Below are positions 7,788-34,534 of a stretch of DNA of 47,389 bases, piece after piece. The notes under the pieces were generated by a model. That model was not told the DNA's origin. It searched no databases and worked only from the letters and a program-made list of their open reading frames with translations. The position numbers and the translations under genes are program-made. Position 1 is the first letter of the stretch; each line of letters opens with the position of its first letter. Source of the DNA: Escherichia coli (GTDB taxonomy: Bacteria; Pseudomonadota; Gammaproteobacteria; Enterobacterales; Enterobacteriaceae); the NCBI RefSeq assembly GCF_036507355.1, contig NZ_AP027879.1; one strand, given 5' to 3'.

Positions 7788-7837
7788 CATAAATCAGCAC
7801 ACATGAGCCTGTCATTTGACAAATTTTTGTCATGAAG

Positions 7838-11950: not shown

Positions 11951-11976
11951 AGGGGATAGGAGAAGTCGCTTGATAT

Positions 11977-12688
11977 CTAGTATGACGTCTGTCGCACCTG
12001 CTTGATCGCGGCCGCGATAGCTAGATCGCGTTGCTCCTCTTCTCCATCCGCGTTCCAAGCTGCGGAAAGGCACCCATAAGCGTACGCCTGGTCGAGCAGG
12101 CGACGCGGATCGACGTCCAGCGCACGAGAGAATGCGTCCGCCATCTGTGCAATGCGTCTAGGATCGAGACAAAGGTCGTCTCTGTCAGCCGGATCGTAGA
12201 ACATATTGGCGGCGCCAAAGCCCACTTCACCGACCAGACCGACGGGATCTATCACCAGCCAGCCGCGACTGGAGAACATGATGTTTTCATGATGCAGATC
12301 GCCATGTAGCCCACGCAGTTCCGAGGCATTGCTCATCATTTGATCGGCTATAATCGCCGCGTGGACGTAGTCAGTTTGACAACCTGCGTTTTGATCATCG
12401 CGCGCCCGCTGAAACAAAGCTGCAAAGCGATCCCGGATCGGGAGAAGGGCAGAAGGCAGGGGTTCCTCAGATGCGGCATACAGCTTCGCCATTAGTTCCG
12501 CTGCAATTTCGGTCGCCTGGTAGTCGCCGTGCTCGGCAACGATGTGAGAGAGCATTCGCTCCCCGGCATATTCGAGCAACATCAGATTGTTCTCACGACC
12601 GAGCAACCGGACTGCTCCCCTCCCATTGCGCCATACCAGATAGTCGGCCCCGCGCAGTTCATCAGCAATGTCTTCTATAGGTTTCAAT
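11977..12688 (-). pseudogene. strB: aph(6)-Id (strB), 5'-truncated by IS26
   Basis: Matches the C-terminal 237 aa of the full StrB at 27526-28362; N-terminal codons derive from the IS26 end. Confidence 0.85.
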
Positions 12689-13508: not shown

Positions 13509-13561
13509 CGCTCCAGATAGTCATCACCGATGAATCAGGCTCCAGTCGAACGGAGGAACTG

Positions 13562-14890: not shown

Positions 14891-14913
14891 CTCACGCTGC
14901 CCCAATATTTTTT

Positions 14914-15351
14914 ATGCTCTCGGTCGTATGGAAGCTGGACCGCCTCGGTCGTGATCTTCGTCATCTCATTAATACAGTGCACGACCTGACCGCGAGGGGG
15001 ACCGGTCTGAAAGTGCTGACCGGTCACGGGGCGACTATCGACACAACAACGGCCGCTGGCAAGCTTGTCTTCGGTATCTTTGCCGCACTGGCGGAGTTTG
15101 AGCGCGAACTGATTGCTGAAAGAACGACTGCAGGTCTGGCATCAGCAAGAGCCCGTGGGCGGAACGGCGGCCGACCTTATAAAATGACGCCAGTCAAACT
15201 GCGACTGGCAATGGCATCAATGGGACAATCAGAAACAAAGGTCAGTACGCTATGCCAGGAACTTGGGATAACCCGGCAAACTTTGTACAGGCATATTTCC
15301 CCTGTTGGTCAACTGCGGGCGGACGGGATCAAGCTGCTCAACCGTGGATAA
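14914..15351 (+). pseudogene. tnpR: Serine resolvase (tnpR-like), 5'-truncated
   Basis: Frame begins mid-domain at LDRLGRD and lacks the catalytic Ser region; C-terminal HTH retained. Confidence 0.6.
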
Positions 15352-15408
15352 TTTGAACGGACGGAAAAATCTGGGGTTCCGGCGTAGTACCCCTATCACC
15401 TCCACATT

Positions 15409-15422
15409 TTTGCAACAGTGCC
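15409..15422. repeat. Solo 14-bp IS26/IS6-family terminal repeat (TTTGCAACAGTGCC)
   Basis: Exact match to the IS26 IR with no adjoining IS26 sequence. Confidence 0.4.
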
Positions 15423-15669
15423 TTATAAATGGCAGCCTTATGTTTACTTGCCAAGATGGGCTACCATATGATGTTTTATACTGAGCAATATTAATATTAT
15501 CTTTAATGGAAAAATTAAGCCCACTAAGTGACCCACTGCTATATGGCTCTATTGTGAAGACGCCTGAGGGTAAAAATTTATACATGGTTGTCCCTATGTC
15601 TATTATTGCAAGGTTGACAATATTATTCGTTTTATAAATTTGAGCGTTTAAAATCACACATCAAAGCAA

Positions 15670-16326
15670 TTAGTCAGGATAAACAACAATACCCAGTGCT
15701 TCGAGAATCAGTTCTTGCTGCCAGGCTGCAATTTTGATACCTGATGTATCGACTTTGCGGGGATCTAAACCGTCGAGTTCGGCGTGGCATAAATTGGCAC
15801 CCTGTAGGCTAAATTGCCCCCAGACATCTTCGGAAAAAACACCTCGACTTAAGTCTGACTCTTTCAGTGATGCACCCGCTAGGTTCGTTCCTATCCAGCG
15901 ATTTTCAAACAACTCACATTTTTCTAAACAAACCCTCTCCATATTGGCATAGGAAAGATTACATCCAGAAATAAATGCTGAGCAAAAGTACATACGATTA
16001 CTCACTTGATGGGCAAAGTTTGTTCGGGAAAAGTTGGCACCTTTTAAATCACACGCACGGAACTCTATACCGTAGCAATTGGCATTACTGAAGTTTGCCA
16101 TCGCAAGTTGGCATTGTTGGAAACTTGCATCACGAAGATCTGCGACATCAAAGTGGCAGCCTTCGATATCACCCTGTTCAATGAACTTGCAGTTGACGAA
16201 TGTCGTATCACGCAAGTTAGCACGTCGAAAGTCGCTGCGAATGAATGTGCAAGCGGTGAAGGTGAGATCACTTAAGTCTTTATGTGAAAAGTTGTGGTGC
16301 CGATATGTATGATTGTAGGTTTCCAT
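15670..16326 (-). CDS. qnrS1: Pentapeptide-repeat quinolone-resistance protein QnrS1
   Basis: 218 aa starting METYNHTYRHHNFSHKDL; pentapeptide repeats throughout. Confidence 0.95.
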   Translation of the reverse strand: METYNHTYRHHNFSHKDLSDLTFTACTFIRSDFRRANLRDTTFVNCKFIEQGDIEGCHFDVADLRDASFQQCQLAMANFSNANCYGIEFRACDLKGANFSRTNFAHQVSNRMYFCSAFISGCNLSYANMERVCLEKCELFENRWIGTNLAGASLKESDLSRGVFSEDVWGQFSLQGANLCHAELDGLDPRKVDTSGIKIAAWQQELILEALGIVVYPD

Positions 16327-16693
16327 GAGTACTCCTTGTTGAAAGGAGGGCTAGACTACCATTATACATATGCCAAGACATTAAAATAAAAGCCTGTTAC
16401 ATCAACACATTACAACCCCTCAATTTACCTGTTTTAAGTGGTCAAATTGGCGCGTAGAGCGCCTATCGCTCTTGCATTGGCACGCGGCCCTGTTGAAAAA
16501 AGTTATTCGCTTTAGATAGGGTTAGGAGAGCCGTGCTTCGCCGGTAAAAAATCGGACTATCCGACGCAGGGCGGACTCATCGGCGGAGAAGCAAACTTTG
16601 ACTATATCTCCCTACACTTGGAAGAGGGCTAGACTGGCCCCATAGATCACCAGACACTTCGACTCTCTTAAAATAAGAGGTAGTCTTGGAACT

Positions 16694-17089
16694 ATGTTTA
16701 ATACCAGTCAGAACGATAAGATGGTTGAAGTGTTATCAGGACCTGAGCGGCGTCGGCGTCGTACACCGCAGGAAAAAATTGCCATTATTCAGCAGACTAT
16801 GGAGCCCGGTATGACCGTGTCTCATGTCGCGCGCCTGCATGGCATCAATGCAAACCAGATATTCAAATGGCGCAAGCAATATTAAGACGGTTCACTGACG
16901 GCTGTTGCATCGGGCGAGGAAGTGGTGCCGGCCTCCGAACTCGCTGCCGCCAATAAGCAAATTCGCGAACTCCAGCGCCTTCTGGGCAAAAAGACGATGG
17001 AAGCCGAGATACTCAAAGAGGCCGTGGAGTTCGGCCGGGCAAAAAAATGGATTGCGCATGCGCCCTCGTTGCCTGGGAACGACGAATAA
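16694..17089 (+). pseudogene. IS2-like orfA containing an in-frame TAA at 16883-16885
   Basis: MFNTSQ...KWRKQY stop [12 protein letters not shown]...PGNDE; same frame continues for 67 codons after the stop. Confidence 0.5.
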
Positions 17090-17202
17090 GCGACGTTTGC
17101 AGAAGTCTTGGCGTGTCGCGTGCGCAGTTGAGCATTCGGGTTCACCGGCCATCTGACTGACAGGATCGCAGACGGCAGCCCCGTTCTGACGATACCACCG
17201 TA

Positions 17203-17745
17203 TTGTCCCGGATAAACATGGCGGTGGCTGACCTGCCGACGTATGGTTATCGCCGTGTGTGGGCGCTGCTGCGACGGGAGTCGGAGCGGGACGGCCTGCC
17301 TGTGGTTAATGCAAAGCGGGTGTATCGCATTATGAGAACGCATAATCTGCTTCTTGAACGTAAACCCGCTGATCCTTGCCGTAAGCGGGCCCATAAGGGG
17401 CGCGTAGCAGTAGCGGAAAGTAACCGGCGCTGGTGCTCAGATGGCTTTGAGTTCCGCTGTGATAATGGCGAAAAGCTGCGGGTGACCTTCGCGCAGGACT
17501 GCTGCGACAGGGAGATCATTGACTGGGCAGCGAGCACCGGAGGCTATGACAAAGAAACGGTGCAGGATGTCATGCTGGGTGCGGTGGAAAAACGCTTCGG
17601 AAGGCAGTTGCCAACAGTGCCGGCGTTCGCCCGGTTGCTGGGACTGGAGCCTTGTACGACAGCAGTGCGAAGCCCGGAAAGCAATGGCATAGCAGAAAGC
17701 TTCGTGATGACGATAAAACGGGACTACATCAGCATCAGGATTTTA
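17203..17745 (+). pseudogene. IS2-like orfB, 3'-truncated
   Basis: 183-aa catalytic-domain fragment ending where the Tn3 IR starts. Confidence 0.6.
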
Positions 17746-17783
17746 GGGGTCTGACGCTCAGTGGAACGAAAACTCACGTTAAG
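17746..17783. repeat. Tn3/Tn2 38-bp terminal inverted repeat
   Basis: GGGGTCTGACGCTCAGTGGAACGAAAACTCACGTTAAG. Confidence 0.85.
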
Positions 17784-19081
17784 CAACGTTTTCTGCCTCT
17801 GACGCCTCTTTTAATGGTCTCAGATGTCCTTTGGTCACCAGTTCTGCCAGCGTGAAGGAATAATGGCCGAGCATATTGATATGTCCGTGGCAAAGCGGGG
17901 AGAGGCGTGCGATATCTTCATCATTCAGTGTTTCACCCTGCGCCCGGAGATGATCCAGGGCTGCCTGCATATAAATAGTGTTCCATAACACGACGGCGTT
18001 AGTGACCAGCCCCAGTGTGCCCAGTTGATCTTCCTGACCGTCGGTATATCGTTTTCTTATCTCACCTTTTTGACCGTGACAGATGGCTCTGGCAACGGCA
18101 TGGCGACTTTCTCCCCGATTAAGCTGGGTCAGAATGCGCCGGCGGTAATCTTCATCATCAATATAATTAAGCAGATACAGCGTTTTGTTGATGCGCCCCA
18201 CTTCAATGATTGCCTGAGTCAGTCCGGAAGGACGTTCACTTTTCAGCAATGAACGGACCAGCACTGAAACCTGTACTTTGCCCAGCTTCAGGGAGCCAGC
18301 GGTCCGGATCATTTCGTCCCACTGAAGGACTATTTTTCGGGGATCTGATTGCCCTCTGGCAATATCATTCAGCACGCCATAGTCGGCATCATGGTCCATT
18401 CGCCAGAAAACCGAAGCACCGGCATCAGCCAGGCGTGGAGAAAACTGGTATCCCAGCAGCCAGAAAAGGCCAAAGACAAGTTCGCTGGCACCTGCTGTAT
18501 CGGTCATAATTTCGGTTGGATTCAGCCCGGTCTCCTGTTCCAGAAGACCTTCCAGCACAAAGATAGAGTCCCTCAGCGTCCCCGGTATAACGATGCCATG
18601 AAAGCCGGAATACTGATCGGACACAAAGTTGTACCAGGTGATCCCTCTGTTATTACCAAAGTATTTGCGGTTCGGTCCGGCATTGATTGTTCTGACTGGC
18701 GTAACAAAGCGCATTCCATCTGCAGATGCCACTTCTCCTCCACCCCATATCTGTGCCAGTGGCAGCGTTGCCTGAAAATCAACCAGTCTGGCATTAGCGC
18801 TGGTGATAGTTTCAGCCCGCAGATAGTTCGCTTTTGTCCAGTTCAGCCGGTGTCGGGTCAGTGCAGGAACATTTGATCTGATCAGTGGTTCCAGACCGAT
18901 ATTGCAGGCTTCAGCCATCAGCACGGCGCTGATGCTGACGGGCAGATCATCAACTCTGGCACTGGCTTCACTAGCATGGAAAAACTCATCAGCAAATCCG
19001 GTATGGGCGTTAATTTCGAGCAGCAACTCCGTTAAATCCACCGGAGGGAGTAGATCACTGATCATTTTGCTCAGTCGTTTC
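17779..19081 (-). pseudogene. tnpA: Tn3-family transposase TnpA (Tn2/Tn3), 5'-truncated by IS26
   Basis: 435-aa C-terminal portion ending inside the Tn3 IR; N-terminus replaced by IS26. Confidence 0.85.
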
Positions 19082-19901
19082 GGCACTGTTGCAAATAGTC
19101 GGTGGTGATAAACTTATCATCCCCTTTTGCTGATGGAGCTGCACATGAACCCATTCAAAGGCCGGCATTTTCAGCGTGACATCATTCTGTGGGCCGTACG
19201 CTGGTACTGCAAATACGGCATCAGTTACCGTGAGCTGCAGGAGATGCTGGCTGAACGCGGAGTGAATGTCGATCACTCCACGATTTACCGCTGGGTTCAG
19301 CGTTATGCGCCTGAAATGGAAAAACGGCTGCGCTGGTACTGGCGTAACCCTTCCGATCTTTGCCCGTGGCACATGGATGAAACCTACGTGAAGGTCAATG
19401 GCCGCTGGGCGTATCTGTACCGGGCCGTCGACAGCCGGGGCCGCACTGTCGATTTTTATCTCTCCTCCCGTCGTAACAGCAAAGCTGCATACCGGTTTCT
19501 GGGTAAAATCCTCAACAACGTGAAGAAGTGGCAGATCCCGCGATTCATCAACACGGATAAAGCGCCCGCCTATGGTCGCGCGCTTGCTCTGCTCAAACGC
19601 GAAGGCCGGTGCCCGTCTGACGTTGAACACCGACAGATTAAGTACCGGAACAACGTGATTGAATGCGATCATGGCAAACTGAAACGGATAATCAACGCCA
19701 CGCTGGGATTTAAATCCATGAAGACGGCTTACGCCACCATCAAAGGTATTGAGGTGATGCGTGCACTACGCAAAGGCCAGGCCTCAGCATTTTATTATGG
19801 TGATCCCCTGGGCGAAATGCGCCTGGTAAGCAGAGTTTTTGAAATGTAAGGCCTTTGAATAAGACAAAAGGCTGCCTCATCGCTAACTTTGCAACAGTGC
19901 C
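19082..19901 (+). mobile_element. IS26, complete (copy b)
   Basis: 14-bp IRs, 820 bp. Confidence 0.95.
19145..19849 (+). CDS. tnp26: IS26 transposase Tnp26, N at position 184
   Basis: Identical protein to copy a. Confidence 0.95.
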   Translation: MNPFKGRHFQRDIILWAVRWYCKYGISYRELQEMLAERGVNVDHSTIYRWVQRYAPEMEKRLRWYWRNPSDLCPWHMDETYVKVNGRWAYLYRAVDSRGRTVDFYLSSRRNSKAAYRFLGKILNNVKKWQIPRFINTDKAPAYGRALALLKREGRCPSDVEHRQIKYRNNVIECDHGKLKRIINATLGFKSMKTAYATIKGIEVMRALRKGQASAFYYGDPLGEMRLVSRVFEM

Positions 19902-20600
19902 GTTTATTCTTCCTATACGTGCCGCGTTCCAGGCGGCGACTATGAGGGCTATGTCGATGCCCATGTGCGCCGGCTGGAGGCGCTACGCCGGGCCGGTATC
20001 GTCGAGCGGATCGACGCCGACCAATGGCGCATCCCCGATGATCTGGTCAGCCGTGCCGCCGCCCATGACGCCGGCCGAGACAGTCAGGCCAGCGTTCGCG
20101 TCCTTTCCCCGGTCGATCTGAACAAACAGATCGGATCGGACGGCGCGACCTGGCTGGACCGGCGGCTGATCCACGGCGAGACGGCCGACCTTGCGCCAAC
20201 CGGCTTCGGGCAACAAGTCCGCGAAGCCATGGACCAGCGCCGCGAGCACCATATCGAACAGGGCGACGCCACCCGCAGCCGGGACAGCCGCGTCTTCTAC
20301 CGGCGCAACCTTCTCGCCATCCTGCGGGAGCGCGAGGTAGCCGGCGTCGGATCGGATATGGCTTTGAGTAAGGGCCTGCCGTTCCGCGCCGCCACGGACG
20401 GCGAGAGCGTCAGCGGCAAGTTTACCGGAACCGTGCATCTATCGAGCGGCAAGTTCGCCGTGGTCGAGAAATCCCATGAGTTCACCCTTGTCCCGTGGCG
20501 GCCGATCATCGACCGCCAACTCGGCCGCGAGGTTATGGGCATCGTGCAGGGCGGGTCGGTGTCGTGGCAGTTAGGGCGGCAGAGGGGGCTGGAACGCTGA
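19902..20600 (+). pseudogene. Relaxase-like (VirD2-type) C-terminal fragment, as seen upstream of floR
   Basis: Frame is open from the IS26 boundary; no intact start; GC-rich. Confidence 0.4.
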
Positions 20601-20816
20601 GTGCGCCCATGCCGCATTGCGAAGCAAAAGATAATCGGATAAAATGTAGCAATTCATATTCGTAAGCGTGGAGTAATCAGATGGGAAATTCCAAGTCAGC
20701 AGACAAGTAAGCCGCAACAACCAGTATTGTTGTTGCGGCGCTCTGTAAGGCTAGTCTCATCTGATTGCTGACGAGCAGACGTCGCCCGGTATTCCTTAAT
20801 CGAGGGTTGATTCGTC

Positions 20817-22031
20817 ATGACCACCACACGCCCCGCGTGGGCCTATACGCTGCCGGCAGCACTGCTGCTGATGGCTCCTTTCGACATCCTCGCTTCACTG
20901 GCGATGGATATTTATCTCCCTGTCGTTCCAGCGATGCCCGGCATCCTGAACACGACGCCCGCTATGATCCAACTCACGTTGAGCCTCTATATGGTGATGC
21001 TCGGCGTGGGCCAGGTGATTTTTGGTCCGCTCTCAGACAGAATCGGGCGACGGCCAATTCTACTTGCGGGCGCAACGGCTTTCGTCATTGCGTCTCTGGG
21101 AGCAGCTTGGTCTTCAACTGCACCGGCCTTTGTCGCTTTCCGTCTACTTCAAGCAGTGGGCGCGTCGGCCATGCTGGTGGCGACGTTCGCGACGGTTCGC
21201 GACGTTTATGCCAACCGTCCTGAGGGTGTCGTCATCTACGGCCTTTTCAGTTCGATTCTGGCGTTCGTGCCTGCGCTCGGCCCTATCGCCGGAGCATTGA
21301 TCGGCGAGTTCTTGGGATGGCAGGCGATATTCATTACTTTGGCTATACTGGCGATGCTCGCACTCCTAAATGCGGGTTTCAGGTGGCACGAAACCCGCCC
21401 TCTGGATCAAGTCAAGACGCGCCGATCTGTCTTGCCGATCTTCGCGAGTCCGGCTTTTTGGGTTTACACTGTCGGCTTTAGCGCCGGTATGGGCACCTAC
21501 TTCGTCTTCTTCTCGACGGCTACCCGTGTGCTCATAGGCCAAGCGGAATATTCCGAGATCGGATTCAGCTTTGCCTTCGCCACTGTCGCGCTTGTAATGA
21601 TCGTGACAGCCCGTTTCGCGAAGTCCTTTGTCGCCAGATGGGGCATCGCAGGATGCGTGGCGCGTGGGATGGCGTTGCTTGTTTGCGGAGCGGTCCTGTT
21701 GGGGATCGGCGAACTTTACGGCTCGCCGTCATTCCTCACCTTCATCCTACCGATGTGGGTTGTCGCGGTCGGTATTGTCTTCACGGTGTCCGTTACCGCG
21801 AACGGCGCTTTGGCAGAGTTCGACGACATCGCGGGATCAGCGGTCGCGTTCTACTTCTGCGTTCAAAGCCTGATAGTCAGCATTGTCGGGACATTGGCGG
21901 TGGCACTTTTAAACGGTGACACAGCGTGGCCCGTGATCTGTTACGCCACGGCGATGGCGGTACTGGTTTCGTTGGGGCTGGTGCTCCTTCGGCTCCGTGG
22001 GGCTGCCACCGAGAAGTCGCCAGTCGTCTAA
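20817..22031 (+). CDS. floR: Florfenicol/chloramphenicol MFS exporter FloR
   Basis: 404 aa starting MTTTRPAWAYTLPAALLLMAPFDIL; 12-TM MFS. Confidence 0.95.
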   Translation: MTTTRPAWAYTLPAALLLMAPFDILASLAMDIYLPVVPAMPGILNTTPAMIQLTLSLYMVMLGVGQVIFGPLSDRIGRRPILLAGATAFVIASLGAAWSSTAPAFVAFRLLQAVGASAMLVATFATVRDVYANRPEGVVIYGLFSSILAFVPALGPIAGALIGEFLGWQAIFITLAILAMLALLNAGFRWHETRPLDQVKTRRSVLPIFASPAFWVYTVGFSAGMGTYFVFFSTATRVLIGQAEYSEIGFSFAFATVALVMIVTARFAKSFVARWGIAGCVARGMALLVCGAVLLGIGELYGSPSFLTFILPMWVVAVGIVFTVSVTANGALAEFDDIAGSAVAFYFCVQSLIVSIVGTLAVALLNGDTAWPVICYATAMAVLVSLGLVLLRLRGAATEKSPVV

Positions 22032-22058
22032 CCGACGACTGGTAGCAGGCCCGCTCCG

Positions 22059-22364
22059 ATGCGGCGCACTAACCATCGAAACCTCGTGAATGTCGGTATC
22101 CTGTCTGGCAGGATACCGCTCATTTCCCTTGTTCAGTTCATCGCCGTCGCCGAGCATCTGAATTTTCGGCATGCGGCCAAGGCACTTGGTATCAGCCAGT
22201 CGAGCGTCAGCGCGCGTGTGAAAGCGCTGGAGGATAACCTTGGTGTCCTGCTATTTGAGCGCCATGCGCGGGGCGTTCGGCTAACAGACGCAGGCAGGCA
22301 CTTCATGGAGCGTGTCACGGCGGGTGTCGATCAACTCGATCACGCAGTGAAGACCGCGGAGTGA
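22059..22364 (+). pseudogene. lysR: LysR-family regulator, N-terminal HTH fragment
   Basis: 101 aa with HTH region only; effector domain missing. Confidence 0.6.
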
Positions 22365-22369
22365 CGGGC

Positions 22370-24193
22370 ACTGGCTGGCAATGTCTAGCAACGGCAGGCA
22401 TTTCGGCTGAGGGTAAAAGAACTTTCCGCTAAGCGATAGACTGTATGTAAACACAGTATTGCAAGGACGCGGAACATGCCTCATGTGGCGGCCAGGACGG
22501 CCAGCCGGGATCGGGATACTGGTCGTTACCAGAGCCACCGACCCGAGCAAACCCTTCTCTATCAGATCGTTGACGAGTATTACCCGGCATTCGCTGCGCT
22601 TATGGCAGAGCAGGGAAAGGAATTGCCGGGCTATGTGCAACGGGAATTTGAAGAATTTCTCCAATGCGGGCGGCTGGAGCATGGCTTTCTACGGGTTCGC
22701 TGCGAGTCTTGCCACGCCGAGCACCTGGTCGCTTTCAGCTGTAAGCGTCGCGGTTTCTGCCCGAGCTGTGGGGCGCGGCGGATGGCCGAAAGTGCCGCCT
22801 TGCTGGTTGATGAAGTACTGCCTGAACAACCCATGCGTCAGTGGGTGTTGAGCTTCCCGTTTCAGCTGCGTTTCCTGTTTGCCAGCCGGCCCGAGATCAT
22901 GGGGTGGGTGCTGGGCATCGTTTACCGCGTCATTGCCACGCACCTGGTCAAGAAAGCGGGCCATACCCACCAAGTGGCCAAGACGGGCGCGGTCACCCTG
23001 ATCCAGCGTTTTGGATCGGCGCTCAATCTGAATGTTCACTTCCACATGCTGTTTCTCGACGGTGTGTATGTCGAGCAATCCCACGGCTCAGCGCGTTTCC
23101 GCTGGGTCAAGGCGCCGACCAGCCCAGAGCTCACCCAGCTGACGCACACCATCGCCCACCGGGTGGGTCGCTATCTGGAACGGCAAGGCCTGCTGGAACG
23201 GGATGTCGAAAACAGCTATCTGGCCTCGGATGCGGTGGATGACGACCCGATGACACCCCTGCTGGGGCACTCGATCACTTACCGTATCGCTGTCGGTTCA
23301 CAGGCGGGGCGAAAGGTGTTCACTTTGCAAACTCTGCCGACCAGTGGTGATCCGTTCGGTGACGGGATTGGCAAGGTAGCCGGGTCCAGCCTGCACGCCG
23401 GCGTGGCGGCCAGGGCCGATGAACGCAAGAAGCTCGAACGGCTGTGCCGGTACATCAGCCGCCCGGCGGTATCCGAGAAGCGGCTGTCGTTAACACGAGG
23501 CGGCAACGTGCGCTACCAGCTCAAGACGCCGTACCGGGACGGCACCACGCACGTCATTTTCGAACCATTGGATTTCATTGCAAGGCTGGCCGCCCTGGTA
23601 CCGAAGCCCAGAGTCAACCTAACCCGCTTCCACGGGGTGTTCGCACCCAACAGTCGGCACCGGGCGTTGGTCACGCCGGCAAAACGGGGCAGGGGCAACA
23701 AGGTCAGGGTGGCTGATGAACCGGCAACACCAGCACAACGGCGAGCGTCGATGACATGGGCGCAACGGCTCAAGCGTGTTTTCAATATCGACATCGAGAC
23801 CTGCAGCGGCTGCGGCGGCGCCATGAAAGTCATCGCCTGCATTGAAGACCCTATAGTGATCAAGCAGATCCTTGATCACCTGAAGCACAAAGCCGAAACC
23901 AGCGGGACCAGGGCGTTACCCGAAAGCCGGGCGCCACCGGCTGAGCTGCTCCTGGGTCTGTTTGACTGACGAGCCTGAAGGCCAACGATACCAATCAAAA
24001 TGCTGCGTTCACAGCGCCGCGGCAGGGATCCGCCGTGCTGGTTGTCGGAAAAGGAGCCGCTAGTGGGAAAGAGGAGGGTAAATTTTCAGCGTTGCTGGCT
24101 CCCCGTCAGCCGGATTGGGTTGCATCGCAGGGGTGTCGAAAGAGTCAACTGCGGTCCAAAGCTGTTGGACTTGGGTGAAAAGGGCGTTTATTC
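22370..24193 (+). mobile_element. ISCR2 (IS91-like rolling-circle element); boundaries approximate
   Basis: Contains the ISCR2 transposase; right side ends at an IS26 fragment. Confidence 0.5.
22476..23969 (+). CDS. ISCR2 rolling-circle transposase
   Basis: 497 aa with HUH/zinc-binding motifs (CESCHAEHLVAFSCKRRGFCPSCGARRM). Confidence 0.9.
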   Translation: MPHVAARTASRDRDTGRYQSHRPEQTLLYQIVDEYYPAFAALMAEQGKELPGYVQREFEEFLQCGRLEHGFLRVRCESCHAEHLVAFSCKRRGFCPSCGARRMAESAALLVDEVLPEQPMRQWVLSFPFQLRFLFASRPEIMGWVLGIVYRVIATHLVKKAGHTHQVAKTGAVTLIQRFGSALNLNVHFHMLFLDGVYVEQSHGSARFRWVKAPTSPELTQLTHTIAHRVGRYLERQGLLERDVENSYLASDAVDDDPMTPLLGHSITYRIAVGSQAGRKVFTLQTLPTSGDPFGDGIGKVAGSSLHAGVAARADERKKLERLCRYISRPAVSEKRLSLTRGGNVRYQLKTPYRDGTTHVIFEPLDFIARLAALVPKPRVNLTRFHGVFAPNSRHRALVTPAKRGRGNKVRVADEPATPAQRRASMTWAQRLKRVFNIDIETCSGCGGAMKVIACIEDPIVIKQILDHLKHKAETSGTRALPESRAPPAELLLGLFD

Positions 24194-24447
24194 GGCACTG
24201 TTGCAAATAGTCGGTGGTGATAAACTTATCATCCCCTTTTGCTGATGGAGCTGCACATGAACCCATTCAAAGGCCGGCATTTTCAGCGTGACATCATTCT
24301 GTGGGCCGTACGCTGGTACTGCAAATACGGCATCAGTTACCGTGAGCTGCAGGAGATGCTGGCTGAACGCGGAGTGAATGTCGATCACTCCACGATTTAC
24401 CGCTGGGTTCAGCGTTATGCGCCTGAAATGGAAAAACGGCTGCGCTG
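24194..24447 (+). mobile_element. IS26 fragment (first about 254 bp including IRL and tnp 5' end)
   Basis: Identical to the IS26 left end; interrupted by inverted complete IS26 copy c. Confidence 0.8.
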
Positions 24448-24448
24448 G

Positions 24449-25268
24449 GGCACTGTTGCAAAGTTAGCGATGAGGCAGCCTTTTGTCTTATTCAAAGGCC
24501 TTACATTTCAAAAACTCTGCTTACCAGGCGCATTTCGCCCAGGGGATCACCATAATAAAATGCTGAGGCCTGGCCTTTGCGTAGTGCACGCATCACCTCA
24601 ATACCTTTGATGGTGGCGTAAGCCGTCTTCATGGATTTAAATCCCAGCGTGGCGTTGATTATCCGTTTCAGTTTGCCATGATCGCATTCAATCACGTTGT
24701 TCCGGTACTTAATCTGTCGGTGTTCAACGTCAGACGGGCACCGGCCTTCGCGTTTGAGCAGAGCAAGCGCGCGACCATAGGCGGGCGCTTTATCCGTGTT
24801 GATGAATCGTGGGATCTGCCACTTCTTCACGTTGTTGAGGATTTTACCCAGAAACCGGTATGCAGCTTTGCTGTTACGACGGGAGGAGAGATAAAAATCG
24901 ACAGTGCGGCCCCGGCTGTCGACGGCCCGGTACAGATACGCCCAGCGGCCATTGACCTTCACGTAGGTTTCATCCATGTGCCACGGGCAAAGATCGGAAG
25001 GGTTACGCCAGTACCAGCGCAGCCGTTTTTCCATTTCAGGCGCATAACGCTGAACCCAGCGGTAAATCGTGGAGTGATCGACATTCACTCCGCGTTCAGC
25101 CAGCATCTCCTGCAGCTCACGGTAACTGATGCCGTATTTGCAGTACCAGCGTACGGCCCACAGAATGATGTCACGCTGAAAATGCCGGCCTTTGAATGGG
25201 TTCATGTGCAGCTCCATCAGCAAAAGGGGATGATAAGTTTATCACCACCGACTATTTGCAACAGTGCC
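24449..25268 (-). mobile_element. IS26, complete (copy c)
   Basis: 14-bp IRs, 820 bp. Confidence 0.95.
24501..25205 (-). CDS. tnp26: IS26 transposase Tnp26, N at position 184
   Basis: Same protein as copies a and b. Confidence 0.95.
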
Positions 25269-25600
25269 CCGGTAACTATCAACTTGAGTCCAACCCGGAA
25301 AGACACGACAAAACGCCACTGGCAGCAGCCATTAGTAACAGGAGTGCACGAGAAGATAGATTAAGAGGTCTTGAAGTAGAGGCCTGACTGCGGCTACACT
25401 GAAAGAACAGTTTTGGTAATGGCGGTCTCGTGAACCCTGTTACCGGGTTAAGCAGTTCCCCAACTGACTTAACCTTCGAACAAACCGCCTCCCCAGGCGG
25501 TTTTTTCGTTTACAGAGCAAGAGATTACGATTCATTGAAAAGGATCTCAAGAAGATCCTTTGTAGATTACTATCAATTAATCTTCCGAACATGACACCAG
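25269..25600 (+). other. ColE1-type replicon remnant (RNAI/RNAII control region); origin proper deleted by IS26
   Basis: Colinear with the pBR322-type ori region from CGGTAACTATC..TTGAGTCCAACCCGG through AAAGGATCTCAAGAAGATCCTTTG. Confidence 0.5.
25407..25506 (+). ncRNA. RNAI-like antisense RNA of the ColE1-type remnant
   Basis: Position matches RNAI in ColE1-type origins; ends in hairpin plus T-run CCGCCTCCCCAGGCGGTTTTTT. Confidence 0.4.
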
Positions 25601-25846
25601 TCACTGTTGATTACGGTTAAACCGCTCCGTAACAGGTTTCCCTCGTATTGGTGACTTGCAGCACCAAAGAAGCAAAAAAGATAAATATATCTACTTATTG
25701 AGAGATGATATATTTATTTCCAAAATGCTACAGATACATCATCATGAAACGGATCACCGCAAACAGGTTACTCGCCTGGGGATTCCCTTTCGACCCGAGC
25801 ATCCGTATGATACTCATGCTCGATTATTATTATTATAGAAGCCCCC

Positions 25847-26662
25847 ATGAATAAATCGCTCATCATTTTCGGCATCGTCAACATAACCTCGGACAGTTTC
25901 TCCGATGGAGGCCGGTATCTGGCGCCAGACGCAGCCATTGCGCAGGCGCGTAAGCTGATGGCCGAGGGGGCAGATGTGATCGACCTCGGTCCGGCATCCA
26001 GCAATCCCGACGCCGCGCCTGTTTCGTCCGACACAGAAATCGCGCGTATCGCGCCGGTGCTGGACGCGCTCAAGGCAGATGGCATTCCCGTCTCGCTCGA
26101 CAGTTATCAACCCGCGACGCAAGCCTATGCCTTGTCGCGTGGTGTGGCCTATCTCAATGATATTCGCGGTTTTCCAGACGCTGCGTTCTATCCGCAATTG
26201 GCGAAATCATCTGCCAAACTCGTCGTTATGCATTCGGTGCAAGACGGGCAGGCAGATCGGCGCGAGGCACCCGCTGGCGACATCATGGATCACATTGCGG
26301 CGTTCTTTGACGCGCGCATCGCGGCGCTGACGGGTGCCGGTATCAAACGCAACCGCCTTGTCCTTGATCCCGGCATGGGGTTTTTTCTGGGGGCTGCTCC
26401 CGAAACCTCGCTCTCGGTGCTGGCGCGGTTCGATGAATTGCGGCTGCGCTTCGATTTGCCGGTGCTTCTGTCTGTTTCGCGCAAATCCTTTCTGCGCGCG
26501 CTCACAGGCCGTGGTCCGGGGGATGTCGGGGCCGCGACACTCGCTGCAGAGCTTGCCGCCGCCGCAGGTGGAGCTGACTTCATCCGCACACACGAGCCGC
26601 GCCCCTTGCGCGACGGGCTGGCGGTATTGGCGGCGCTGAAAGAAACCGCAAGAATTCGTTAA
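25847..26662 (+). CDS. sul2: Sulfonamide-resistant dihydropteroate synthase Sul2
   Basis: 271 aa starting MNKSLIIFGIVNITSDSFSDGG. Confidence 0.95.
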   Translation: MNKSLIIFGIVNITSDSFSDGGRYLAPDAAIAQARKLMAEGADVIDLGPASSNPDAAPVSSDTEIARIAPVLDALKADGIPVSLDSYQPATQAYALSRGVAYLNDIRGFPDAAFYPQLAKSSAKLVVMHSVQDGQADRREAPAGDIMDHIAAFFDARIAALTGAGIKRNRLVLDPGMGFFLGAAPETSLSVLARFDELRLRFDLPVLLSVSRKSFLRALTGRGPGDVGAATLAAELAAAAGGADFIRTHEPRPLRDGLAVLAALKETARIR

Positions 26663-26722
26663 CTGCACATTCGGGATATTTCTCTATATTCGCGCTTCAT
26701 CAGAAAACTGAAGGAACCTCCA

Positions 26723-27526
26723 TTGAATCGAACTAATATTTTTTTTGGTAAATCGCATTCTGACTGGTTGCCTGTCAGAGGCGGAGAATCTGGTGATTTT
26801 GTTTTTCGACGTGGTGACGGGCATGCCTTCGCGAAAATCGCACCTGCTTCCCGCCGCGGTGAGCTCGCTGGAGAGCGTGACCGCCTCATTTGGCTCAAAG
26901 GTCGAGGTGTGGCTTGCCCCGAGGTCATCAACTGGCAGGAGGAACAGGAGGGTGCATGCTTGGTGATAACGGCAATTCCGGGAGTACCGGCGGCTGATCT
27001 GTCTGGAGCGGATTTGCTCAAAGCGTGGCCGTCAATGGGGCAGCAACTTGGCGCTGTTCACAGCCTATCGGTTGATCAATGTCCGTTTGAGCGCAGGCTG
27101 TCGCGAATGTTCGGACGCGCCGTTGATGTGGTGTCCCGCAATGCCGTCAATCCCGACTTCTTACCGGACGAGGACAAGAGTACGCCGCAGCTCGATCTTT
27201 TGGCTCGTGTCGAACGAGAGCTACCGGTGCGGCTCGACCAAGAGCGCACCGATATGGTTGTTTGCCATGGTGATCCCTGCATGCCGAACTTCATGGTGGA
27301 CCCTAAAACTCTTCAATGCACGGGTCTGATCGACCTTGGGCGGCTCGGAACAGCAGATCGCTATGCCGATTTGGCACTCATGATTGCTAACGCCGAAGAG
27401 AACTGGGCAGCGCCAGATGAAGCAGAGCGCGCCTTCGCTGTCCTATTCAATGTATTGGGGATCGAAGCCCCCGACCGCGAACGCCTTGCCTTCTATCTGC
27501 GATTGGACCCTCTGACTTGGGGTTGA
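26723..27526 (+). CDS. strA: Aminoglycoside 3''-phosphotransferase APH(3'')-Ib
   Basis: 267 aa; classic sul2-strA-strB order. Confidence 0.95.
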   Translation: MNRTNIFFGKSHSDWLPVRGGESGDFVFRRGDGHAFAKIAPASRRGELAGERDRLIWLKGRGVACPEVINWQEEQEGACLVITAIPGVPAADLSGADLLKAWPSMGQQLGAVHSLSVDQCPFERRLSRMFGRAVDVVSRNAVNPDFLPDEDKSTPQLDLLARVERELPVRLDQERTDMVVCHGDPCMPNFMVDPKTLQCTGLIDLGRLGTADRYADLALMIANAEENWAAPDEAERAFAVLFNVLGIEAPDRERLAFYLRLDPLTWG

Positions 27527-28362
27527 TGTTCATGCCGCCTGTTTTTCCTGCTCATTGGCACGTTTCGCAACCTGTTCTCATTGCGGACACCTTTTCCAGC
27601 CTCGTTTGGAAAGTTTCATTGCCAGACGGGACTCCTGCAATCGTCAAGGGATTGAAACCTATAAAAGACATTGCTGATGAACTGCGCGGGGCCGACTATC
27701 TGGTATGGCGCAATGGGAGGGGAGCAGTCCGGTTGCTCGGTCGTGAGAACAATCTGATGTTGCTCGAATATGCCGGGGAGCGAATGCTCTCTCACATCGT
27801 TGCCGAGCACGGCGACTACCAGGCGACCGAAATTGCAGCGGAACTAATGGCGAAGCTGTATGCCGCATCTGAGGAACCCCTGCCTTCTGCCCTTCTCCCG
27901 ATCCGGGATCGCTTTGCAGCTTTGTTTCAGCGGGCGCGCGATGATCAAAACGCAGGTTGTCAAACTGACTACGTCCACGCGGCGATTATAGCCGATCAAA
28001 TGATGAGCAATGCCTCGGAACTGCGTGGGCTACATGGCGATCTGCATCATGAAAACATCATGTTCTCCAGTCGCGGCTGGCTGGTGATAGATCCCGTCGG
28101 TCTGGTCGGTGAAGTGGGCTTTGGCGCCGCCAATATGTTCTACGATCCGGCTGACAGAGACGACCTTTGTCTCGATCCTAGACGCATTGCACAGATGGCG
28201 GACGCATTCTCTCGTGCGCTGGACGTCGATCCGCGTCGCCTGCTCGACCAGGCGTACGCTTATGGGTGCCTTTCCGCAGCTTGGAACGCGGATGGAGAAG
28301 AGGAGCAACGCGATCTAGCTATCGCGGCCGCGATCAAGCAGGTGCGACAGACGTCATACTAG
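27526..28362 (+). CDS. strB: Aminoglycoside 6-phosphotransferase APH(6)-Id
   Basis: 278 aa from MFMPPVFPAHW; 1-bp overlap with the strA stop. Confidence 0.95.
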   Translation: MFMPPVFPAHWHVSQPVLIADTFSSLVWKVSLPDGTPAIVKGLKPIKDIADELRGADYLVWRNGRGAVRLLGRENNLMLLEYAGERMLSHIVAEHGDYQATEIAAELMAKLYAASEEPLPSALLPIRDRFAALFQRARDDQNAGCQTDYVHAAIIADQMMSNASELRGLHGDLHHENIMFSSRGWLVIDPVGLVGEVGFGAANMFYDPADRDDLCLDPRRIAQMADAFSRALDVDPRRLLDQAYAYGCLSAAWNADGEEEQRDLAIAAAIKQVRQTSY

Positions 28363-28387
28363 ATATCAAGCGACTTCTCCTATCCCC

Positions 28388-28468
28388 TGGGAACACATCA
28401 ATCTCACCGGAGAATATCGCTGGCCAAAGCCTTAGCGTAGGATTCCGCCCCTTCCCGCAAACGACCCC
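28388..28468. repeat. Tn5393-type 81-bp terminal inverted repeat downstream of strB
   Basis: Reverse complement begins GGGGTCGTTTGCGGGAAGGGG. Confidence 0.5.
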
Positions 28469-28717
28469 TTTCTGGCGCGTTTGCAGGGCCATAGACGGCC
28501 GCCAGCCCAGCGGCGAGGGCAACCAGCCCGGTGAGCGTCGGAAAGGCGCTGGAAGCCCCGTAGCGACGCGGAGAGGGGCGAGACAAGCCAAGGGCGCAGG
28601 CTCGATGCGCAGCACGACATAGCCGGTTCTCGCAAGGACGAGAATTTCCCTGCGGTGCCCCTCAAGTGTCAATGAAAGTTTCCAACGCGAGCCATTCGCG
28701 AGAGCCTTGAGTCCACG
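28469..28717. other. Short non-coding segment joining the strB/IR end to the tet module; origin uncertain (contains GCCCCTCAAGTGTCA)
   Basis: No ORF; ends exactly where tetR-upstream sequence begins without a Tn1721 IR. Confidence 0.3.
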
Positions 28718-29032
28718 CTAGATCTATCTCATCTGCGCAAGGCAGAACGTGAAGACGGCCGCCCTGGACCTCGCCCGCGAGCGCCAGGCGCACGAGGCCG
28801 GCGCGCGGACCCGCGCCACGGCCCACGAGCGGACGCCGCAGCAGGAGCGCCAGAAGGCCGCCAGAGAGGCCGAGCGCGGCCGTGAGGCTTGGACGCTAGG
28901 GCAGGGCATGAAAAAGCCCGTAGCGGGCTGCTACGGGCGTCTGACGCGGTGGAAAGGGGGAGGGGATGTTGTCTACATGGCTCTGCTGTAGTGAGTGGGT
29001 TGCGCTCCGGCAGCGGTCCTGAGCGGTCCTGA

Positions 29033-29683
29033 TCAATCGTCACCCTTTCTCGGTCCTTCAACGTTCCTGACAACGAGCCTCCTTTTCGCCAATCCATCGA
29101 CAATCACCGCGAGTCCCTGCTCGAACGCTGCGTCCGGACGGGCTTCGTCGAAGGCGTCTATCGCGGCCCGCAACAGCGGCGAGAGCGGAGCCTGTTCAAC
29201 GGTGCCGCCGCGCTCGCCGGCATCGCTGTCGCCGGCCTGCTCCTCAAGCACGGCCCCAACAGTGAAGTAGCTGATTGTCATCAGCGCATTGACGGCGTCC
29301 CCGGCCGAAAAACCCGCCTCGCAGAGGAAGCGAAGCTGCGCGTCGGCCGTTTCCATCTGCGGTGCGCCCGGTCGCGTGCCGGAATGGATGCGCGCGCCAT
29401 CGCGGTAGGCGAGCAGCGCCTGCCTGAAGCTGCGGGCATTCCCGATCAGAAATGAGCGCCAGTCGTCGTCGGCTCTCGGCACCGAATGCGTATGATTCTC
29501 CGCCAGCATGGCTTCGGCCAGTGCGTCGAGCAGCGCCCGCTTGTTCCTGAAGTGCCAGTAAAGCGCCGGCTGCTGAACCCCCAACCGTTCCGCCAGTTTG
29601 CGTGTCGTCAGACCGTCTACGCCGACCTCGTTCAACAGGTCCAGGGCGGCACGGATCACTGTATTCGGCTGCAACTTTGTCAT
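29033..29683 (-). CDS. tetR: Tetracycline repressor TetR, class A (variant copy)
   Basis: 216 aa from MTKLQPNTVIRAALDLL; differs from the second copy at two residues. Confidence 0.95.
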   Translation of the reverse strand: MTKLQPNTVIRAALDLLNEVGVDGLTTRKLAERLGVQQPALYWHFRNKRALLDALAEAMLAENHTHSVPRADDDWRSFLIGNARSFRQALLAYRDGARIHSGTRPGAPQMETADAQLRFLCEAGFSAGDAVNALMTISYFTVGAVLEEQAGDSDAGERGGTVEQAPLSPLLRAAIDAFDEARPDAAFEQGLAVIVDGLAKRRLVVRNVEGPRKGDD

Positions 29684-29692
29684 GCTTGACAC

Positions 29693-29788
29693 TTTATCAC
29701 TGATAAATATAATATGTCCACCAACTTATCAGTGATAAAGAATCCGCGCGTTCAATCGGACCAGCGGAGGCTGGTCCGGAGGCCAGAC
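29693..29788. promoter_or_regulatory. tetR/tetA divergent promoter region with tet operator palindromes
   Basis: ACTTTATCACTGATAAA and CTTATCAGTGATAAAG between the divergent genes. Confidence 0.7.
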
Positions 29789-30988
29789 GTGAAACCCAAC
29801 AGACCCCTGATCGTAATTCTGAGCACTGTCGCGCTCGACGCTGTCGGCATCGGCCTGATTATGCCGGTGCTGCCGGGCCTCCTGCGCGATCTGGTTCACT
29901 CGAACGACGTCGCCGCCCACTATGGCATTCTGCTGGCGCTGTATGCGTTGATGCAATTTGCCTGCGCACCTGTGCTGGGTGCGCTGTCGGATCGTTTCGG
30001 GCGGCGGCCGGTCTTGCTCGTCTCGCTGGCCGGCGCTGCTGTCGACTACGCCATCATGGCGACGGCGCCTTTCCTTTGGGTTCTCTATATCGGGCGGATC
30101 GTGGCCGGCATCACCGGGGCGACTGGGGCGGTAGCCGGCGCTTATATTGCCGATATCACTGATGGCGATGAGCGCGCGCGGCACTTCGGCTTCATGAGCG
30201 CCTGTTTCGGGTTCGGGATGGTCGCGGGACCTGTGCTCGGTGGGCTGATGGGCGGTTTCTCCCCCCACGCTCCGTTCTTCGCCGCGGCAGCCTTGAACGG
30301 CCTCAATTTCCTGACGGGCTGTTTCCTTTTGCCGGAGTCGCACAAAGGCGAACGCCGGCCGTTACGCCGGGAGGCTCTCAACCCGCTCGCTTCGTTCCGG
30401 TGGGCCCGGGGCATGACCGTCGTCGCCGCCCTGATGGCGGTCTTCTTCATCATGCAACTTGTCGGACAGGTGCCGGCCGCGCTTTGGGTCATTTTCGGCG
30501 AGGATCGCTTTCACTGGGACGCGACCACGATCGGCATTTCGCTTGCCGCATTTGGCATTCTGCATTCACTCGCCCAGGCAATGATCACCGGCCCTGTAGC
30601 CGCCCGGCTCGGCGAAAGGCGGGCACTCATGCTCGGAATGATTGCCGACGGCACAGGCTACATCCTGCTTGCCTTCGCGACACGGGGATGGATGGCGTTC
30701 CCGATCATGGTCCTGCTTGCTTCGGGTGGCATCGGAATGCCGGCGCTGCAAGCAATGTTGTCCAGGCAGGTGGATGAGGAACGTCAGGGGCAGCTGCAAG
30801 GCTCACTGGCGGCGCTCACCAGCCTGACCTCGATCGTCGGACCCCTCCTCTTCACGGCGATCTATGCGGCTTCTATAACAACGTGGAACGGGTGGGCATG
30901 GATTGCAGGCGCTGCCCTCTACTTGCTCTGCCTGCCGGCGCTGCGTCGCGGGCTTTGGAGCGGCGCAGGGCAACGAGCCGATCGCTGA
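29789..30988 (+). CDS. tetA: Tetracycline efflux MFS pump TetA, class A (variant copy)
   Basis: 399 aa from GTG at VKPNRPLIVILSTVALDAVGIG; three aa differences from the second copy. Confidence 0.95.
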   Translation: MKPNRPLIVILSTVALDAVGIGLIMPVLPGLLRDLVHSNDVAAHYGILLALYALMQFACAPVLGALSDRFGRRPVLLVSLAGAAVDYAIMATAPFLWVLYIGRIVAGITGATGAVAGAYIADITDGDERARHFGFMSACFGFGMVAGPVLGGLMGGFSPHAPFFAAAALNGLNFLTGCFLLPESHKGERRPLRREALNPLASFRWARGMTVVAALMAVFFIMQLVGQVPAALWVIFGEDRFHWDATTIGISLAAFGILHSLAQAMITGPVAARLGERRALMLGMIADGTGYILLAFATRGWMAFPIMVLLASGGIGMPALQAMLSRQVDEERQGQLQGSLAALTSLTSIVGPLLFTAIYAASITTWNGWAWIAGAALYLLCLPALRRGLWSGAGQRADR

Positions 30989-31359
30989 TAGAGGTTTATA
31001 GCGGCTTCGTTCCCTTCCGCAACCGTCAGCATGATCTGCTCCACATGCTCGCGGCCATAGTCTATCACCGCCCGCAGCAGCATACCGGCGACCCCTCGGC
31101 CTCGCTGTTCGGGCTCCACGAAAACGCCGGACAGATGCGCCTTGTGAGCGTCCTTGGGGCCGTCCTCCTGTTTGAAGACCGACAGCCCAATGATCTCGCC
31201 GTCGATGTAGGCGCCGAATGCCACGGCATCTCGCAACCGTTCAGCGAACGCCTCCATGGGCTTTTTCTCCTCGTGCTCGTAAACGGACCCGAACATCTCT
31301 GGAGCTTTCTTCAGGGCCGACAATCGGATCTCGCCGAAATGCCTGCCGTTGCTAGACAT
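30989..31359 (-). pseudogene. GNAT-family N-acetyltransferase, 3'-truncated at the tetA boundary
   Basis: First about 123 codons GNAT-like (QRGRGVAGMLLRAVIDYGRE); frame continues into antisense tetA. Confidence 0.5.
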
Positions 31360-31364
31360 TGCCA

Positions 31365-31847
31365 GCCAGTGCCCGTCACTCCCGTACTAACTGTCACGAA
31401 CCCCTGCAATAACTGTCACGCCCCCCTGCAATAACTGTCACGAACCCCTGCAATAACTGTCACGCCCCCAAACCTGCAAACCCAGCAGGGGCGGGGGCTG
31501 GCGGGGTGTTGGAAAAATCCATCCATGATTATCTAAGAATAATCCACTAGGCGCGGTTATCAGCGCCCTTGTGGGGCGCTGCTGCCCTTGCCCAATATGC
31601 CCGGCCAGAGGCCGGATAGCTGGTCTATTCGCTGCGCTAGGCTACACACCGCCCCACCGCTGCGCGGCAGGGGGAAAGGCGGGCAAAGCCCGCTAAACCC
31701 CACACCAAACCCCGCAGAAATACGCTGGAGCGCTTTTAGCCGCTTTAGCGGCCTTTCCCCCTACCCGAAGGGTGGGGGCGCGTGTGCAGCCCCGCAGGGC
31801 CTGTCTCGGTCGATCATTCAGCCCGGCTCATCCTTCTGGCGTGGCGG
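31365..31847. other. IncQ1 (RSF1010-type) oriV fragment with direct iterons, GC-rich and AT-rich segments
   Basis: Iterons CTGTCACGAACCCCTGCAATAA at about 31386-31470, then GC-rich block and AT-rich CCATCCATGATTATCTAAGAATAATCC; identification from recalled RSF1010 sequence. Confidence 0.55.
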
Positions 31848-32770
31848 ATGATAACGGCCAGCATGGCGTCCAGAACGTCCAATGCATCATCCAGCGCCAG
31901 CGTTTCCCATGCAAGGACAAAGGCAACCAGAACCGCCATCCTTTTCTGCGGTGACATCCTGGCAATATTGAACACCGAAGTCATACCAGCATAACGTGCG
32001 AGATTTTTCAGGCGCACAGCCGGGAGTGTACTCAGGTTTTCAGCATGCAGGCCAAAATCGTTCAGAGTTTTCCAGCGTTCAATTGCTTCATTAAACGCCG
32101 GACCACTGATGGTCACAGGGCCCTTTTTCAGTGATTCCAGTAAAGACAGGCGGCTGCAATCAGTTGGCCCCAGCAGCATCTCCAGCTGTGAACGCTGTTC
32201 GGCTGACGGTATCAGTGCCAGTTTGTTCCACAGGCGCAACGTCGCCTTTTCCCTTACCTCTGAAATCAACCGGGTCAGCGTAGTGGCTCCGGGGAGAATA
32301 ATACGATGTTGCATAAGCCACCCTGTCGCCAGATCGAAAAGCAGGCCAGGACGTTCGTTGCTTATCCAGCTCCGGGTATATAAAAGACGGGTAAGGCGAA
32401 ATGTCCAGGGCCAGGCAAATTCACGATACTGATAGTGCTGACGTATCAGCGCTGCATGCTCACGGCGGGTATTTTCCCTCTGACCGTATTCTGCAAGAAC
32501 GGTGATATCACGAATCCCGAGCTGTCTGGCGGTAAAATGCCGGACGCCGGAAGGAATATGATTCATATCGGTGAGGAAGGTGCCCAGAAAACGGACACAT
32601 CCAATTTGCAGGGCAATGCCCAGACGGTTGTGATCACCTCTGCTTTTTCCGATAAATTCCTTGTCTGCTTCATCAAGGTGAAAATATCGTGCCAGCTGAA
32701 GCTCATCCGGTTCACCGGTGAATCTGCCATAGCTTTCAGTCTGCTCAGTGGTCAGAAAGTCAACGGGCAT
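31848..32770 (-). pseudogene. tnpA: Tn2/Tn3 transposase TnpA, N-terminal about 307 codons only (3'-truncated)
   Basis: MPVDFLTTEQTESYGRFTGEPDELQLARYFHL...; frame runs into oriV-fragment sequence. Confidence 0.85.

Positions 32771-33491
<721 letters not shown>

Positions 33492-33661: not shown

Positions 33662-34534
<873 letters not shown>

Follow-up and report, generated by a model that had tools for sequence, protein, structure and literature searches.

IS26 is reported to form cointegrates only, and never simple insertions (PMC8722046; PMC9602291). Its copy-in chemistry and adjacent deletion have been documented (PMC9602291, PMC8722046, PMC4471558), and an 8-bp stagger has been described (PMC4471558). 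Intramolecular deletions and inversions by IS26 were documented by He et al. 2015 (PMC4471558), and the generation of translocatable units by adjacent deletion was documented by Harmer and Hall (PMC9602291, PMC8722046). The G184N change in the transposase Tnp26 is reported to raise its activity, according to the part of PMC9019673 that cites Pong et al. 2019.

The locus described here belongs among these systems. Within the window, i.e. the whole 47,389-nucleotide stretch of Escherichia coli DNA that was analysed, a partial IS26 copy (p) directly adjoins the IRR end of an inverted complete copy (c), and the IRL of c adjoins ColE1-type DNA. The complete copy from which p derives is denoted P. 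The coordinates of the features are collected in Table 1.

Table 1. Features of the window around the p-c joint and in the wider resistance region
Feature	Position	Strand	Remarks
IS26 copy a, complete	12689-13508	-	BLAST of the window
qnrS1	within 13509-19081 segment		Resistance island
IS26 copy b, complete	19082-19901	+	Asn184 variant; left boundary of the floR-ISCR2 unit
Putatively captured unit	19902-24193	+	4,284 bp plus 8-bp duplication
Target-site duplication (8 bp), left copy	19902-19909		GTTTATTC; right of b
DUF3363 gene	19965-20600		In floR-ISCR2 unit; B19 annotation, offset +3699
floR	20817-22031		In floR-ISCR2 unit; B19 annotation, offset +3699
lysR-type gene	22059-22364		In floR-ISCR2 unit; B19 annotation, offset +3699
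ISCR2/ISVsa3 transposase gene	22476-23969		Unit continues 224 bp downstream; B19 annotation, offset +3699
Target-site duplication (8 bp), right copy	24186-24193		GTTTATTC; left of p
Partial IS26 p	24194-24448	+	IS26 nt 1-255; BLAST of the window
Putative 8-bp target of the IRR of c	24441-24448	+	TGCGCTGG; IS26 nt 248-255; 8-bp stagger (PMC4471558)
IS26 copy c, complete	24449-25268	-	BLAST of the window
Truncated ColE1-type origin region	25269-25706	+	Cut within RNAII
RNAI	25408-25509		Rfam RF00106, 73.9 bits against a gathering score of 47
sul2-strA-strB module	25707-28468	+	Directly continues the ColE1 fragment, as in pE2348-2
sul2	25847-26662	+	
strA/aph(3'')-Ib	26723-27526	+	
strB/aph(6)-Id	27526-28362	+	
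blaTEM	33674-34534		Resistance island
sul3	34792-35583		Resistance island
IS26 copy d, complete	37596-38415	-	BLAST of the window
intI1	39228-40340		Resistance island
IS26 copy e, complete	40234-41053	-	BLAST of the window

IS26 copies in the window

When an IS26 copy of the window was compared with the window by BLAST, five complete copies of 820 bp (a to e) and the partial copy p were found. There were no further IS26 fragments in the window and no piece corresponding to nt 248/256-820, so the rest of the interrupted copy is absent, as the initial annotation had stated. A partial plus-strand IS26 lying against a complete inverted copy had likewise been described correctly, except that its length is 255 bp and not 254 bp. 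The stub matched IS26 nt 1-255 with 255/255 identity (E 6e-132), and the match extends through window base 24448 (G), the counterpart of IS26 nt 255. At base 24449, where a continuing IS26 would have T (nt 256), the IRR terminus of c, GGCACTGTTGCAAAG, begins with its first G. Together p and c form a 1,075-bp IS26-derived structure bounded by two IRL termini, and p pairs perfectly with the IRL-proximal 255 bp of c as an inverted repeat, with 565 bp between the two arms.

Copy c is 820 bp long and has the 14-bp terminal inverted repeats GGCACTGTTGCAAA that identify it as IS26. Its tnp26 gene (24501-25205, minus strand) is an intact open reading frame for a single 234-aa transposase carrying the DDE_Tnp_IS240 domain (PF13610, E 5e-49). 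An 8-bp target-site duplication around c is not present, the flanks being GTTACCGG at the IRL and CCAGCGCA at the IRR. Such a duplication is not expected for copies taking part in intramolecular or cointegrate events, and the identity of c as IS26 is unaffected. Codon 184 (nt 613-615) is AAC (Asn) in copies a, b and c and GGC (Gly) in copies d and e. Among the IS26 copies of the window, c alone has A at nt 459, where b has G. The same 459A was found in the ColE1-linked IS26 copies of CP090262, pZ1322PEC0188-4, pTB422, B19 and ET665.

The stub p keeps the IRL, the native start of tnp26 and the first 64 codons of this gene, without the DDE domain and without the IRR. Its open reading frame encodes Tnp26 residues 1-64 followed by 53 unrelated read-through residues, and a domain search of the product gave no DDE match and only sub-threshold HTH matches. 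The two terminal inverted repeats and the catalytic domain of an autonomous element are thus not combined in p, and PGAP annotates the stub as an incomplete IS6-family transposase in the B19, ET665 and ES6 records. A promoter scan of 24100-25400 returned no consensus promoter and is uninformative. Several further readings of the structure are speculative and highly improbable: that a truncated Tnp26 from p, with a putative DNA-binding N-terminus, would modulate and likely inhibit transposition of the five intact copies, that p and c would move together as a 1,075-bp variant IS, or that the DNA just downstream of ISCR2 would be a genuine IS26 target hot spot.

The floR-ISCR2 unit

Copies b and p are directly oriented around the floR-ISCR2 unit and have the same 8 bp, GTTTATTC, at both inner junctions, which is the arrangement of a copy-in product or pseudo-compound transposon. 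The uninterrupted target GGGCGTTTATTCTTCC, with a single GTTTATTC, is present as an 80-mer in the compared loci L006, L009 and L010. As the octamer is shared by the two junctions and occurs once in uninterrupted targets, b and p are the two IS26 copies of one copy-in product, and the repeat implies that a putative circular floR-ISCR2 molecule, or translocatable unit, was captured by copy-in. At its other end, b is flanked on the IRL side by a Tn3-family tnpA remnant. A complete IS26 at exactly the site of p was found in many E. coli records (single-piece 1,220-bp matches). Copy p was once a complete IS26, and the view that the stub is the IRL-proximal part of such a copy was borne out.

Downstream of ISCR2, a stretch of about 23 bp holds three independent IS26 joints (window about 24165-24195; L009; L011). 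They are the joint of the present window at GTTTATTC (plus orientation), one at TTTATTCT in pYUYZPE165-1 (minus orientation, with full duplication; L009 6496-7315) and one at GTTGGACT in ET201 (plus orientation; L011 8473). The approximately 30 bp downstream of ISCR2 may be a local target hot spot for IS26.

The ColE1-derived flank

The 3,200 bp beyond the IRL of c (25269-28468), RNAI included, share 99.9 % identity with pE2348-2, a 6.1-kb ColE1-type plasmid (nt 5710-6147 and 1-2762), which represents the small ColE1-like sul2-strA-strB plasmids of the pE2348-2/p9123 type. The ColE1-like sequence reported beyond c was therefore recognised correctly, as the RNAI score also indicates, but the replicon is only a fragment in which RNAII and the origin are not complete. 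The origin proper is absent: the homology begins at nt 5710 of pE2348-2, and the preceding 250 bp are not beside c. Compared with pE2348-2, the window thus has part of the replicon, with IS26 cutting RNAII at nt 5710 and the rest of the backbone missing. A search for an IS26 lying between the two halves of the ColE1 origin with a CCGGTAAC duplication found none. In pEC213_1-OXA-181, an IS26 lies in the same origin at a different site, 238 bp away.

Occurrence of the p-c joint in other plasmids

A search of complete E. coli genomes for the same junction, which the initial annotation had proposed as a check, found the p-c joint in three other, independently assembled plasmids: B19, ET665 and ES6. 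In the plasmid of B19, which is from a sheep in Ningxia, the entire 1,901-bp query was matched at 100 % in one piece. ET665 and ES6 are both from frog farms in Guangdong. In ET665, the ISCR2 tail, p and c are followed by 15 bp of the ColE1 fragment, CCGGTAACTATCAAC (L003 13570-13584), and then by a further IS26 in minus orientation. As this 15-bp ColE1 remnant is kept after c, ET665 descends from a p-c-ColE1 arrangement. Next to the IRL of its further IS26 is the sequence that flanks the IRL of b in B19, and the layout fits an inversion, mediated by IS26, of an arrangement like that of B19. In ES6, the ISCR2 tail, p and c are followed by a flank that adjoins a downstream IS26 in B19. We considered that c of ES6 might be a recombinant of c and the downstream IS26 of B19, but the SNPs disagree: the downstream IS26 of B19 has 459A/553T and c of ES6 has neither. 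The shared right flank is the single point in favour of a deletion between direct copies in ES6.

In PLSDB, no single-piece match to the full-length ISCR2 tail-p-c or p-c-ColE1 arrangement was obtained with queries of 421, 90 and 1,101 bp; the matches listed were mostly two-piece IS26 artefacts, among which a p-c joint with another left flank could escape. The p-c joint had no match in exact 40-mer scans of GTDB representative genomes and JGI metagenome contigs.

IS26 occurs at six places in the window, and such repeats are a classic source of misassembly, so a collapse or mis-joining of IS26 repeats had been named as the finding that would overturn the interpretation. There is next to no likelihood that the joint arose in this way, since the identical ISCR2 tail-p-c joint is present in three independent assemblies from different hosts and regions. 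Derived forms also exist, namely the 15-bp ColE1 remnant of ET665 and the different IRL flank of ES6.

Relative age of the two junctions of c

According to the initial annotation, the ColE1-type DNA was brought next to c by an adjacent deletion that followed insertion. In this route IS26 would have inserted into P at nt 248-255, and an adjacent deletion from the IRL of c would then have made the c-ColE1 joint. The final structure is formally compatible with such events, and the distribution of the two junctions speaks for the opposite order. In PLSDB, 12 plasmids match the exact IS26(IRL)-ColE1 joint in a single piece, and the DNA on the IRR side of the IS26 is unrelated among them. The neighbour of the ColE1-linked IS26 on this side is IncFII backbone in pZ1322PEC0188-4 (cat, Korea), oqxB/rrf2 in pTB422 and an integron fragment in CP090262, and the joint is also present in an IncX3 Klebsiella plasmid. 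In ET201, the ColE1-linked IS26 is itself truncated (nt 1-330) and is adjoined by a complete IS26(+). The c-ColE1 joint is thus far commoner than the p-c joint, and various plasmids and hosts have the former without the latter.

One of the 12 plasmids, pPBS4 (H78), has the order sul2<-ColE1 fragment-IS26(+)-GTTTATTC-floR unit-GTTTATTC-IS26(+). Its ColE1-linked IS26 is the left boundary of the duplication-flanked floR-ISCR2 unit, and the IS26 at the site of p is complete. As pPBS4 carries the c-ColE1 joint beside a complete IS26 at this site, the ColE1-type DNA was not brought in by a later deletion. The 12 PLSDB records, pPBS4 among them, and ET201, set against the p-c joint in three other plasmids, show that ColE1 is the older flank of c and the IRR-side joint the new one. 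By this comparison the c-ColE1 joint dates back at least as far as P, and the p-c joint, which truncated P, is younger. The order of events in the initial annotation is probably wrong, and we regard this route as very improbable. It would require at least two events together with many secondary losses of p, and it begins with a simple insertion, which IS26 does not make (PMC8722046, PMC9602291).

Origin of the p-c joint

The joint falls exactly on the terminal base of the IRR of c and on a non-homologous internal position of the other IS26. This excludes homologous recombination as well as the end-targeted conservative reaction, and it agrees with the earlier description of IS26 joined into IS26 by a terminal inverted repeat, the signature of a transposition joint. 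We give about an even chance to an origin by copy-in attack of the IRR of c on P in the adjacent-deletion mode. In this sequence of events, copy-in (replicative) cointegration of an IS26 with a circular floR-ISCR2 molecule of 4,284 bp would have captured the unit, created the complete copy P and left GTTTATTC at either side of the unit. As a separate, older IS26, c would already have had its IRL joined to the truncated ColE1-sul2-strAB module from a small plasmid of the pE2348-2 type. Later, Tnp26 would have linked the IRR of c, by its 3' end, to nt 248-255 of P, and the intramolecular adjacent deletion would have released P nt 256-820 and the spacer between P and c in the form of a circle that was unable to replicate and was then lost. 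The end product would be IS26(1-255) against IRR-c-IRL, followed by ColE1. Catalysis by Tnp26, the 8-bp target and the topology of deletion over inversion are what we infer from the sequence.

The reciprocal joint, i.e. an IRL beside IS26 nt 248 onward (CGACTATTTGCAACAGTGCC|TGCGCTGGTACTGGCGTAAC), was absent from the window, from 86 kb of the B19 plasmid and from all other compared loci. Exact 40-mer scans of the GTDB representative genomes and of JGI metagenome contigs did not detect it either, and the reciprocal joint fused to the start of the floR unit had no single-piece match in E. coli complete genomes. On inspection, the E. coli matches with 69-70 % coverage in two pieces, which were considered as candidates for a reciprocal structure, turned out to be unrelated arrangements. 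As the deletion predicts that the reciprocal piece (nt 248-820) is lost, its absence from these sets favours the deletion mode. A layout of the precursor type is present in CP090262, where IS26(+), a 2.4-kb integron fragment, IS26(-) and ColE1-sul2 follow each other, and it is analogous only. A direct ancestor with complete P, the spacer and c in one molecule and with the exact sites was not found. Because a deletion leaves no second target octamer, the mode is unverifiable from the sequence.

The collinearity with pPBS4, against the deletion, fits an inversion at least as neatly. An inversion (trans mode) from a pPBS4-like ancestor, sul2<-ColE1-IS_L(+)-floR unit-IS_R(+), is a serious rival, although we consider it unlikely. 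Here IS_L would attack IS_R at nt 248-255. Daughter c would keep the ColE1 flank at its IRL and daughter b the unit-start flank at its IRR, while the unit and IS_R(1-255) would be flipped relative to the sul2 module; IS_R 248-820, left of b, would have been lost later. Window positions 19082-24448 are collinear with IS_L-unit-IS_R(1-255) of pPBS4 at 99.94 %, and 24449-33388 is the inverse of IS_L of pPBS4 and all that lies to its left, at 99.98 %. The two alignments share one IS26, and pPBS4 has exactly the predicted precursor structure. Compared with pPBS4, the putative daughters are inversely oriented and each has one old flank (c IRL-ColE1, b IRR-unit). In B19, b and c are identical in sequence, A at nt 459 included, but in the window they differ at this position (G and A, respectively).

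An inversion further predicts CCAGCGCA after an inverted IS26 820-256, immediately left of b (IRR flank GTTTATTCTTCC). This inverted 8-bp repeat, which would be diagnostic, is missing: instead of CCAGCGCA, b has GTCGTTTC next to its IRL in the window and GTTTTTTC there in B19. Nor was the reciprocal fragment found in any searched set, and at least one extra event is required. The IRL flank of b, however, differs among the window, B19 and ET201, so that this side has been repeatedly rearranged and the rearrangements could have erased the reciprocal joint. For this reason the inversion stays a serious rival.

Two other routes would reach the same structure. In one, a molecule with c-ColE1-sul2 would have formed an intermolecular cointegrate with the plasmid carrying P, and the second junction would have been lost; IS26 yields cointegrates as its sole primary product (PMC8722046). 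In the other, P would have attacked c at nt 248-255 and RecA would have flipped the 565-bp core, for which the 255-bp perfect inverted repeat could provide support. ET201 offers an event of the mirror type, with a complete IS26(+) against c truncated at nt 330. Both routes need extra steps, no second junction was found in the window, in B19 or in other compared loci, and no flipped isomer was among the top matches listed in E. coli complete genomes. We consider these routes improbable, and adjacent deletion remains our preferred reading of the p-c joint.

The wider resistance region

The first 12.5 kb of the window match small E. coli plasmids, e.g. CP125008, at 99.8 %. About 15-20 tandem 37-bp repeats at 7724-8500 lie beside a RepB-type replication initiator region and are iteron-like. 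At 11871-12688, adjoining the IRR of a, the 3' region of strB (27651-28468) recurs as an inverted copy of 818 bp. It was considered as the trace of a duplicative or dimer event, which was rejected because the identity reaches only 99.5 % and the copy appears to be part of the adjacent backbone rather than of a recent duplication. Two copies of the tetR(A)-tet(A) region are found (28724-30989 and 41902-44157), and a 300-bp Tn3-family segment is duplicated (41051-41350 and 46539-46838). Beside the floR region of CP090262 (L001 1-17700), six tandem IS26-blaCTX-M-55-wbuC units with a 2,933-bp period form an array that is an IS26-associated amplification.

The structure shows how the floR-ISCR2 unit was linked with the ColE1-derived sul2-strAB-tet(A) module in an animal-associated lineage of E. 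coli multidrug-resistance plasmids. The p-c joint, which is common to the window, B19, ET665 and ES6, provides a convenient marker of this lineage. The flank of an IS26 copy is unreadable as a deletion end-point until the spread of each of its junctions has been checked.

Comparison with known systems

The p-c structure is a textbook IS26 scar that is already known from public plasmid records, and a new element type or mechanism is not required. With the intramolecular copy-in products of IS26 (PMC4471558, PMC9602291, PMC8722046), it shares a terminal inverted repeat joined precisely to new DNA, the lack of a matching 8-bp duplication, inverse neighbour copies and the location in a plasmid multidrug-resistance region. 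It differs from them in that the target is another IS26, at nt 248-255, and in that it is known here without the excised circle or the reciprocal joint.

Scars of the same type, in which an IS26 stub adjoins a complete copy, are present in ET201 (nt 1-330) and pNT1N31-tetX4 (nt 1 to about 505), while the IS26 remnants of B19 (nt 1-301 and nt 590-820) adjoin non-IS26 DNA. The stubs of ET201, pNT1N31-tetX4 and B19 come from the same milieu, i.e. animal-associated E. coli plasmids from China with floR/ISCR2/tet(X4), and their breakpoints differ, so the events were independent.

The arrangement of b and p around the floR-ISCR2 unit, with its 8-bp duplication, is that of an IS26 pseudo-compound transposon, of which pPBS4 has the intact form with two IS26 copies. 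Unlike in the intact form, the right IS26 is here a 255-bp stub, and excision of the unit could use only 255 bp of homology.
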